Shown piece after piece: positions 54,089 to 56,381 of a stretch of 64,000 nucleotides of DNA. Source of the stretch: an uncultured bacterium (GTDB lineage Bacteria; Chlamydiota; Chlamydiia; Chlamydiales; SM23-39); contig CAYRJU010000004.1 in NCBI GenBank assembly GCA_964424735.1, positions 16,038 to 80,037 of the forward strand. Direction: 5' to 3'. A program made the translations under genes and the position numbers. A model generated the notes under the pieces. That model worked only from the letters and a program-made list of their open reading frames with translations, searched no databases and was not told where the DNA came from. Each line of letters begins with the position of its first letter. Position 1 is the stretch's first letter.

Positions 54089-55018
54089 ATGAGTCAGATA
54101 CCCCTTTTGTTTGCCGGAACTTCCCACCCTGAGCTGGCTGCCCAGGTGGCAAAATGTTTGGGAGGCAAGGTGGGGAAAGTGGCCATCGAGACTTTTCCTG
54201 ACGGGGAAATTGGGGTGCAAATCCTCGAGAATGTAAGGGGACGGGATGTCTTTGTCATCCAGTCGCTAGCTAAGCACCCAAATCGATTCTTGATGGAATT
54301 GTTGATCTTGGTCGATGCGCTGAAAAGGGCGTCGGCTAAGAGCATTGTGGCGGTTTTGCCCTACTATGCGTATGCCAGGCAGGACCGAAAAGAGAAGGGG
54401 CGCGTGCCCATTACAGCGAGATTGATGGCCAATTTGCTCGAAAGAGCGGGAGTCACTCGCCTCCTGACAATGGATTTGCATACAGAGCAGATCCAGGGAT
54501 TTTTTGATATCCCTGTCGATCACTTGTATGCCCGGCCTCTTTTTGTGGAGGCTTTGAAAAAACGGCGTCTCAAAGATGCCGTGATTGTCTCTCCCGATGT
54601 GGGAAGCAATCGAATGGCGAGAAAATTCGCCGAAGATTTGAAGTTAGAGATCGCGATTGTCGATAAACGGCGCGTCGATGGGGGGCATGTAGAAGCGAAA
54701 GCTCTCATTGGTAGCGTCAAGGGCAAGGTTGCCATTCTCGTCGATGATATCAGTTCGACGGGGGAGACCTTGAAGATGGCAGCGCAAGTTTGTAAAAAAG
54801 AGGGCGCAAAGACCGTTTTGGCCGTTGTGACCCATGCTCTTTTATTGAGTGGGCATAAAGTGAAAGGTGTAGATGAGCTCTATGTGAGCGATTCGGTACC
54901 CCAAAAAGGAAAAATGCGAGATATGCATGTAGTTTCGATCGCACCGCTATTAGCGGAAGCCATCGATTGTGTGATTTCGGCAAAGTCGATCTCATCACTT
55001 TTTAAGAGGAAAATATGA
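54089..55018 (+). CDS. prs: Ribose-phosphate pyrophosphokinase
   Basis: FPDGE, PYYAYARQDRK, DLHTEQIQGFFD, VSPDVG, VDDISSTGET. Confidence 0.96.
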   Translation: MSQIPLLFAGTSHPELAAQVAKCLGGKVGKVAIETFPDGEIGVQILENVRGRDVFVIQSLAKHPNRFLMELLILVDALKRASAKSIVAVLPYYAYARQDRKEKGRVPITARLMANLLERAGVTRLLTMDLHTEQIQGFFDIPVDHLYARPLFVEALKKRRLKDAVIVSPDVGSNRMARKFAEDLKLEIAIVDKRRVDGGHVEAKALIGSVKGKVAILVDDISSTGETLKMAAQVCKKEGAKTVLAVVTHALLLSGHKVKGVDELYVSDSVPQKGKMRDMHVVSIAPLLAEAIDCVISAKSISSLFKRKI

Positions 55019-55584
55019 AATTGGAATTAGCAAAGAGAACAACCGGCAAAAAGGGAGAGAATAACAAACTCCGCCGGGAGGGAAATATCCCAGCCATTCT
55101 GTACAATTCGAAAAAGGAAGGGAAGCCAGTTGCCGTAAAAGGTGATGAATTCAAGGCGATTTTGCGCACGCTGAAGCCGGGCCTTCTTCCAACAACCGTG
55201 TTTGAACTGACGCTGGATGGCAAAAAGATGAAAGCCATTGTCAAAGAAGTTCAGTATCACGTGGCGAGCTATGAAATTGAGCATGTCGATTTCTTGCAAC
55301 TTTCCGATCAAGAGAAAGTGACGGTGAATGTTCCGATCCAACTCGTTGGAGCTGCTGACTGTGCAGGAGTTAAACTCGGTGGATTTATACGGCAAGTCAT
55401 CCGGTCGTTGAAAGTGACCTGTTTGCCAAAAGATATTCCCCAAGAATTTTCGATCGATGTTCGTGAACTCGGGATTGCAGAGTCCAAGAGATTGTCGGAT
55501 ATCGACATTCCGGCAAGCGTTCGACCCGTTGCCCAGATGAGCGAAGTGGCAGTCCTCGTCGGTAAGAAGGCGGGAGCGGCGTAA
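55015..55584 (+). CDS. rplY: 50S ribosomal protein L25/CTC
   Basis: LRREGNIPAILY, KEVQYH, HVDF, GVKLGG. Confidence 0.93.
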   Translation: MKLELAKRTTGKKGENNKLRREGNIPAILYNSKKEGKPVAVKGDEFKAILRTLKPGLLPTTVFELTLDGKKMKAIVKEVQYHVASYEIEHVDFLQLSDQEKVTVNVPIQLVGAADCAGVKLGGFIRQVIRSLKVTCLPKDIPQEFSIDVRELGIAESKRLSDIDIPASVRPVAQMSEVAVLVGKKAGAA

Positions 55585-55596
55585 TTGAGCTCTTTA

Positions 55597-55783
55597 GAGG
55601 CCCTTGCAAAATTCCACGGCAGCGAAAAATTGATGATTTTGAGCTCAGGTGGAGCCAGCAAGCTGGCCACGGTTCATTCGACGAGGCCAACTCCTGGAAC
55701 CTTTGGAGGGTTGGTCGAGGAGAATAAATGCAGATGAGCTCAAAAGAACAATTTTACGCGCCGAAGAATTTTGCAAGGGCCTC
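55597..55783. mobile_element. MITE-like palindromic element inserted in the 5' end of pth, 187 bp
   Basis: 18-bp perfect TIR GAGGCCCTTGCAAAATTC, imperfect arms to about 50 bp; TTTA duplicated at 55593-55596 and 55784-55787. Confidence 0.85.
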
Positions 55784-56381
55784 TTTAGTCGTGGGTCTTG
55801 GCAATCCGGGCAGAGCTTACAAGAAGACCCGCCACAATATTGGGTTTATGGCTGCAGATCTCTTGGCCCAAAAATGGGGTTTGGAGTTTCGAGAGCAGCA
55901 TGAGTTTAAAGGAGATCTTGCCAAGGGCAAGATCGGTGAGGATTCTCTTTTAGTCCTCAAGCCACTGACCTTTATGAATCTCAGTGGAGAAGCTGTAGCG
56001 CTTGTGATGCGCTACTTTCAGATCGATCTGTCTCGGCTGCTCATCCTCTCGGATGATGTAGCGCTTCCTCTGGGACAGCTGCGCTTGCGCATCAACAGCA
56101 GCTCAGGAGGTCACAATGGCCTCAAGAGCGTTGAAGAGTGTCTGCAGACGATCCGATATCCTAGGCTCCGGATTGGAGTGGGAGATCGAGAAGAAGGGGA
56201 TTTGTCTGACCATGTGTTGGGCAAGTTTTCAAAAGAGGAAGAAACGCTCCTTCCAAGCGTTTTGGAACGAGTCGTCCAAGCTGTTGAAATTTGGCTGGAC
56301 AAAGGTTTAACCAGTGCGATGGATTTTGCCAACAGGCACCCATCGACTCCGAGCATTGGAGAAGAAAATGAAGAAACATGA
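55728..56381 (+). CDS. pth: Peptidyl-tRNA hydrolase with element-derived N-terminus
   Basis: LVVGLGNPG, TRHNIGF, KPLTFMNLSG, SSGGHNGLKS, RLRIGVG; first 19 codons come from the inserted element. Confidence 0.93.
   Translation: MQMSSKEQFYAPKNFARASLVVGLGNPGRAYKKTRHNIGFMAADLLAQKWGLEFREQHEFKGDLAKGKIGEDSLLVLKPLTFMNLSGEAVALVMRYFQIDLSRLLILSDDVALPLGQLRLRINSSSGGHNGLKSVEECLQTIRYPRLRIGVGDREEGDLSDHVLGKFSKEEETLLPSVLERVVQAVEIWLDKGLTSAMDFANRHPSTPSIGEENEET

Follow-up and report, generated by a model that had tools for sequence, protein, structure and literature searches.

A palindromic MITE inserted out of frame at the 5′ end of pth in a Chlamydiales bacterium carries the in-frame start codons that preserve the predicted catalytic core

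The pth gene of an uncultured Chlamydiales bacterium is interrupted twelve bases into its coding sequence, between codons 4 and 5, by a palindromic MITE, and of the in-frame starts only two ATG codons in the right arm of this element retain strand beta-1 and the residues N26 and H36 of the Pth product. Our folding and start-site models favor, with moderate confidence, a restoration of Pth by termination-reinitiation, in which a leader opened at the native TTG start would deliver ribosomes to the element ATGs. The stretch of DNA analyzed, termed the window, is 64,000 nt long and represents positions 16038–80037 of contig C4 (CAYRJU010000004.1) of genome G000. The assembly is a 55-contig draft of 1.68 Mb, 92% complete, with pth situated on a 91.6-kb contig. 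A homologue search gives Parachlamydiales/Chlamydiales MAGs as the nearest named homologues, and the operon order is prs-rplY-pth-rpsF-rpsR-rplI. The features at the rplY/pth junction are as follows.

55015–55584, + strand: rplY (ribosomal protein L25/Ctc), from the ORF list, with Pfam Ribosomal_L25p found on the identical gene in L053
55582–55584, + strand: rplY stop TAA, directly adjoined by TTG 55585
55585–55587, + strand: native pth start TTG, right after the rplY TAA, as in the L053 empty allele and in the TAATTG of the closest species
55585–55737, + strand: leader ORF of 50 codons (four native pth codons and 46 element codons), which stops at TGA 55735–55737
55593–55596: target-site duplication TTTA, left copy (a single TTTA in the L053 empty site)
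55597–55783, + strand: palindromic MITE of 187 bp, with no transposase ORF and only short peptide frames
55597–55614, + strand: left terminal inverted repeat GAGGCCCTTGCAAAATTC
55717–55722, + strand: Shine-Dalgarno (SD)-like GAGGAG, 5 nt before ATG 55728 and 11 nt before ATG 55734
55728–55730, + strand: first in-frame ATG, giving a 217-aa Pth with 19 element residues in place of the native Met-Ser-Ser
55734–55737, + strand: second in-frame ATG, present as ATGA over the leader TGA, giving a 215-aa Pth; the start in the public annotation (P0121)
55766–55783, + strand: right terminal inverted repeat GAATTTTGCAAGGGCCTC
55784–55787: target-site duplication TTTA, right copy (a single TTTA in the L053 empty site)
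55785–56381, + strand: conserved Pth core (LVVGLGNPG...) to the TGA stop

A preliminary description of this DNA had placed the rplY TAA, the TTG, the element, the GAGGAG, the ATGs and the TGA at these same positions, all of which hold. It had also read the TTG 55585 frame as a 50-aa peptide ending at TGA 55735–55737 with an ATGA overlap at ATG 55734, and this is what the translation gives. A native ATGA is found in the same operon, where the prs stop and the rplY start overlap at 55015–55018; this junction is of the type proposed here for the restart.

The inverted repeats of the MITE are perfect over 18 of 18 nt, and 92% of positions match when 25 nt are compared. With the TTTA the total insert amounts to 191 nt (187 bp + TTTA), which is 2 mod 3, so the insertion is out of frame as had been claimed. 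As RNA, the inserted region forms one long hairpin with a predicted free energy of −100.6 kcal/mol (z = −8.5 relative to shuffled sequences). A search of Rfam gave no match to the element, and a consensus scan inside it showed neither a sigma-70-like promoter nor an intrinsic terminator. The window copy carries stops in all three frames, and the pth frame is shut by TAA 55725–55727, directly upstream of ATG 55728. With a length of 191 nt and stops in every frame, read-through of the element is impossible.

A closely related allele without the element is found on L053 (GCA_034680565.1, contig JAXOUH010047191.1), which encodes P0001, a Pth homologue of 177 aa with 99% identity. The L053 junction is GCGTAATTGAGCTCTTTAGTCGTGGGTCTTGGCAATCCGGGC, with a single TTTA, and reads TAA-TTG AGC TCT TTA GTC GTG GGT. 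This is exactly the empty site that had been predicted by removing the insert from the window. The insert is absent as well in 13 of 13 other species of the genus, in all of which pth opens with GTG or TTG only a few bases beyond the rplY stop, and 5–8 residues separate that start from GLGNPG. TAATTG is also the junction in the closest species, where the annotation lets protein P0002 begin at this point (MVVAQF). Window and L053 are 99.8% identical upstream of the element and 99.25% identical downstream of it, and the two pth genes differ by 2 nt, one synonymous and one I/V. When the products of 217 aa and 215 aa were looked up by exact match, the filled allele turned up only in the window's own record. 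Judged from these sequence comparisons, the insertion is a genuine transposition event and is derived, strain-lineage-specific and very recent. Because the insertion is so young, the intact pth frame is uninformative on selection or on lasting tolerance. The preliminary description had stated that the element keeps the gene open; the frame is indeed readable from the element ATGs, but with a pth only 2 nt from that of the empty-site strain this is not evidence of lasting tolerance.

Differences between the window and L053 are unevenly distributed, in that 16 of the 30 found over 5.25 kb fall within 73 nt (window 58540–58612). The cluster has the appearance of a small patch of recombination or gene conversion, the background being otherwise 99.8% identical.

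At least 16 copies, spread over five genomes, make up the repeat family of which the element is a member. G013, from the same genus, has at least 11 copies that are 64–72% identical to the window copy, and G018, G024 and G003 have a few copies or fragments apiece. G000 itself carries a second full copy (C32:4075–4256) and a half copy (C1:43221–43327). Other copies are bounded by 4-bp duplications of their own (TAAA, TCAA, CCTA, TCTA, GTTA, TTCA and AATA), the target being roughly NNTA, and the hairpin is conserved across the family, with compensatory changes in 39 of 67 predicted pairs. The separate duplications, together with the repeat family, thus make the element more than a chance palindrome. 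With the 187-bp length, the inverted repeats, the TTTA, the family copies and the L053 empty site, the earlier proposal of a mobile element inserted in pth is confirmed.

Further copies of the sub-family of the window copy were sought by exact-pattern scans of genome and metagenome contigs for GAGGCCCTTGCAAAATTCNNCG, which returned chance matches only, inside unrelated coding DNA. A source of transposase was also sought. Among the DDE_Tnp_1 and DDE_Tnp_1_6 loci fetched from relatives, IS copies are present and none has matching ends; neither transposase type was found in G000 or G013. A look-alike end in L072 was considered as a mark of the parent IS and rejected, as it sits inside an unrelated ORF and the IS there has different inverted repeats. 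The element is a non-autonomous MITE, with no partner having matching ends among the transposase loci fetched.

An 886-bp segment of G000 (C1:42442–43327; L057 543–1428) displays inverted family-like ends, GAGGCAATTGCAAAACTC and GAGGTAGTTGCAAAACTG, with TATA on both sides. It contains a second small palindrome, a 99-aa membrane-like ORF and the half family copy, and has no transposase. The segment may be a composite mobilized by the same ends. As a candidate for the parent transposon this TATA-flanked segment was rejected, since it encodes no transposase.

The 217-aa ORF at 55728–56381 matches Pfam Pept_tRNA_hydro (PF01195) over residues 20–199 with 214 bits (cut-off 27). In an alignment of 30 homologues (A1), N26, H36, N84, D109/D110 and N130 are invariant. 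The catalytic residues of E. coli Pth are N10, H20, N68, D93 and N114 (PMC3488237), and the window residues N26, H36, N84, D109/D110 and N130 correspond to these. Bacteria are stated to require Pth activity for viability (PMC3488237). A pth gene is present in 41 of 41 related genomes searched. The 92%-complete G000 assembly has one pth; a second-copy check of that assembly, which had been named as a way to overturn the earlier proposal, found neither another pth nor Pth2. An AlphaFold2 model of the protein has a mean pLDDT of 84.5 with a confident core; residues 1–10 score below 50 and are predicted to be disordered. Relatives show natural N-terminal extensions of roughly 9–17 residues, and it is plausible from the model that Pth tolerates a floppy N-terminal extension of 17–19 residues.

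Gene callers place the pth start wrongly in both records: the empty allele is given as 177 aa from an internal Met and the filled allele as 215 aa from inside the element. The L053 gene (1645–2250) as annotated is without the catalytic Asn and His, and its real start is the TTG after the rplY TAA. The corresponding Met41 start was rejected as a start for the window gene, for it removes N26 and H36.

Three in-frame starts were compared for SD pairing and for the cost of opening the start region, the opening energies being those of equilibrium folding models.

ATG 55728: SD −8.4 kcal/mol, opening cost 23.9 kcal/mol, 217 aa with the full core
ATG 55734: SD −8.4 kcal/mol, opening cost 21.2 kcal/mol, 215 aa with the full core
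GTG 55791: SD −3.7 kcal/mol, opening cost 37.7 kcal/mol, product loses strand beta-1

The −8.4 kcal/mol duplex of GAGGAG is calculated with a canonical anti-SD, which is assumed because the 16S 3′ end of G000 is absent from the assembly. This value lies in the top 6% of gene starts in G000, the chance level being 3% of internal ATGs. SD use in G000 is weak overall, with −6 kcal/mol or stronger in 23% of starts and in 12% of the background. In line with the restart site proposed earlier, the sole starts for a full catalytic Pth lie in the right arm of the element behind a strong SD, and the public annotation of the contig has a 215-aa product from ATG 55734.

Initiation beyond the element, at GTG 55791, would give a Pth that begins M-G-L-G-N-P-G and carries no element residues. 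This GTG is in frame and has AAGGG 11 nt upstream. Its use is nevertheless very improbable: it deletes strand beta-1 (residues 19–23 of the model), none of 29 aligned homologues starts so near GLGNPG and there is no plausible start at that place in the junctions of relatives, the SD is weak (−3.7 kcal/mol), and the opening cost is the highest of the three (37.7 kcal/mol), the codon being deep in the terminal stem. A programmed frameshift that joins the leader and pth frames was also considered and rejected, there being no slippery heptamer in the 10-nt overlap of the two frames.

In termination-reinitiation, the reading favored here, ribosomes would initiate at the native TTG 55585, immediately next to the rplY stop, and would translate the 50-codon leader through the left arm and loop, melting the −100 kcal/mol hairpin. 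They would terminate at TGA 55735–55737 and restart at ATG 55734, which forms ATGA with that stop, or at ATG 55728, aided by the GAGGAG of the element. The product would be a full predicted catalytic Pth with its first three residues exchanged for 17–19 floppy residues derived from the element. Leader translation should continue, since the insertion leaves the native TTG and the sequence upstream of it as they were, and because the leader consists mostly of the family frame it would carry ribosomes through the left arm and loop to the stop over ATG 55734. With 55585–55712 held single-stranded, the modeled opening cost of the start region is about 5 kcal/mol, compared with 21–24 kcal/mol in the folded mRNA. 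On these models termination-reinitiation would be the most economical mechanism.

The GAGGAG and ATG could also be used by independent initiation, with no part played by the leader. A strong SD placed 5 nt from ATG 55728 is in keeping with this, and transcription-coupled translation might prevent the hairpin from forming. The modeled opening cost is high, however, unless the left arm is held open; translation of the leader is to be expected in any case, as the native TTG and its context are untouched; and the leader stop lies over ATG 55734 as ATGA, like the native prs-rplY junction. We regard initiation independent of the leader as rather unlikely.

A somewhat stronger competitor, though still an unlikely one, is that the allele is null or strongly crippled and represents a transient or sub-population variant in the assembly, with function supplied by empty-site cells or by an unassembled second copy. 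Favoring this, the event is very recent, given a strain 99.5% identical that carries the empty site and a pth 2 nt apart, and with so young an insertion the intact pth frame is expected even if the gene is dead. The genome is a draft of 55 contigs and 92% completeness, and the missing 8% could hide another pth, which would count against the restart. The start region also lies within the −100 kcal/mol hairpin with its opening cost of 21–24 kcal/mol, and the hairpin itself could be an RNase III target or a block to transcription, again counting against the restart. On the other side, a lethal allele should not become the consensus in a 91.6-kb contig, pth is found in every one of the related genomes searched while neither a second pth nor Pth2 was detected here, and a strong SD and two in-frame ATGs are present exactly where they are needed.

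The long leader on which termination-reinitiation would depend has its origin in the family. The modal family length is 182 bp, which with the 4-bp duplication makes 186 nt or 62 codons. A stop-free frame crosses the whole element in 12 of the 15 other copies; the chance expectation for a stop-free 61-codon stretch, estimated from stop-codon frequency, is roughly 5% per frame. In most stop-free copies this frame reads the conserved peptide EAVAKLLCPEKSMILSHVTSGSKAATVHSTRSTPSGLAEENGRNVAQKGDFNGQMSFAIAS. A 182-bp copy on the minus strand of G013 C9 (L021 1502–1683) is found in frame within a gene, where it forms amino acid positions 194–254 of a 541-aa histidine kinase with PAS, HisKA and HATPase_c domains. 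The copy lies in the PAS region and adds approximately 61 residues, and the orthologues in G000 and G009 are without residues 194–254. The family itself is in-frame-tolerant, in the manner of the Rickettsia palindromic elements, and the pth copy is a frame-broken member of it. The preliminary description had set the element apart from the Rickettsia elements as a different route to tolerance; this stands for the pth copy, which is out of frame, but does not stand for the family, which is of the in-frame type (182 + 4 nt, 62 codons).

In pth the element lies in the orientation and phase that align the family frame with TTG 55585, and it is to this frame that the leader ORF owes its length. The leader peptide, EALAKFHGSEKLMILSS...VEEN, aligns with the family peptide and consists of M-S-S-L followed by EALAKFHGSEKLMILSSGGASKLATVHSTRPTPGTFGGLVEEN. 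The nearest relative of the pth copy is G013 C1:467122, with 72–75% identity. Compared with this relative, the pth copy shows in-frame length changes of +9 and −3 nt, a stop (AGA TGA GCT versus AAC GTG GCC) and a T-run near 55750 that is shorter by 1 nt. After the T-run it is the pth frame that reads the family peptide (YAPKNFARAS, compared with FAPKNFAIHS). The right-arm TGAGCTC is matched by a left-arm GAGCTCA, and this arm match suggests, at the level of sequence, that the leader stop was already in the source element.

That typical family copies are in frame and that the genome is a draft would fit a sequencing or assembly error, with a true insert of 189 or 192 nt read through from TTG 55585. 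One indel is insufficient for this, however, given the leader TGA at 55735, the pth-frame TAA at 55725–55727 and an overlap of the frames of only 10 nt. Relative to its nearest relative the pth copy has a stop substitution in addition to the 1-nt length change, and at least two changes would be required. An error of this kind is the least credible of the explanations considered.

The start signals are only partly a family property. The preliminary description had asked whether other copies carry the same SD and ATG. An exact GAGGAG recurs in 9 of the 15 other copies, which makes it a family feature, but an ATG aligned with 55734 is present in only two of the 15, both in G018, and one aligned with 55728 in a single copy (G018_C61). 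Most copies read AATGGACGCAACGTGGC where the window has AATAAATGCAGATGAGC. It is conceivable, though doubtful, that the family is built to be harmless wherever it inserts, with a through-frame for copies inserted in phase and with the conserved GAGGAG and right-arm starts restarting the host protein from frame-broken or out-of-phase copies; the rescue of pth would then be a fail-safe and not luck.

In the copy nearest to that of the window (L005 1494–1675, in G013 C1), the left inverted repeat contains a TGA, after which comes an open frame of 339 aa from the conserved ATG of the element (position 37). This frame has no Pfam match, overlaps long opposite-strand ORFs and may be spurious.

Rickettsia palindromic elements are small palindromic mobile elements with a conserved open frame that are translated inside real genes (PMC10969869). 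The family described here resembles them in its obligate intracellular host, its conserved frame (12 of 15 copies) and the copy inside the histidine kinase gene. It differs in that it is from another phylum and in that the chlamydial family has clear terminal inverted repeats and a 4-bp duplication; the likeness is in behavior only. Furthermore the pth copy, 191 nt long with stops in all frames, cannot use their in-frame route.

Known contributions of bacterial MITEs to host genes are promoters, IHF sites, small RNAs, in-frame peptide segments, C-termini and stop codons (PMC10969869, PMC5896051). Correia elements provide outward promoters, and in Coxiella the QMITEs contribute stop codons together with C-terminal residues (PMC10969869, PMC5896051); for no gene of known function is the 5′ end affected by a QMITE (PMC5896051). 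The pth element is similar to both in being non-autonomous, in its inverted repeats, duplication and hairpin, and in providing expression signals or coding residues to a host gene. In contrast to them, it would furnish an essential gene with its ribosome-binding site, start codon and N-terminus.

The proposed restart also has a parallel in ordinary operons. Translational coupling by termination-reinitiation occurs at ATGA or TGATG stop/start overlaps in bacterial operons. As in these, the pth junction has a stop atop an ATG, an SD just upstream and a start buried in structure that upstream ribosomes would open. It is unlike them in that the upstream ORF is an accidental leader, four pth codons and a transposon, and in that the coupling here is modeled. 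A limited literature search found no bacterial MITE that gives a ribosome-binding site, a start codon and an N-terminus to an essential gene after an out-of-frame insertion. The parts (a MITE, a frame like that of the Rickettsia elements, ATGA coupling) are already known and the combination is new.

If the restart is real, an out-of-frame transposon in the first codons of an essential gene would be survivable by means of its own ribosome-binding site and start codon. This would add to the routes by which MITEs are tolerated in compact intracellular genomes, i.e. in-frame fusion, promoter donation and 3′-end donation. The empty- and filled-site strains, 99.5% identical, would then be a natural before/after pair, and the junction would offer a simple cassette for hairpin-gated translational coupling in E. 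coli.

A further inverted repeat is found downstream in the window, between rplI and the next gene (57575–58181). Its arms are approximately 259 bp long and approximately 89% alike, and it is also present in the sister strain L053 (3444–3701 and 3795–4050).
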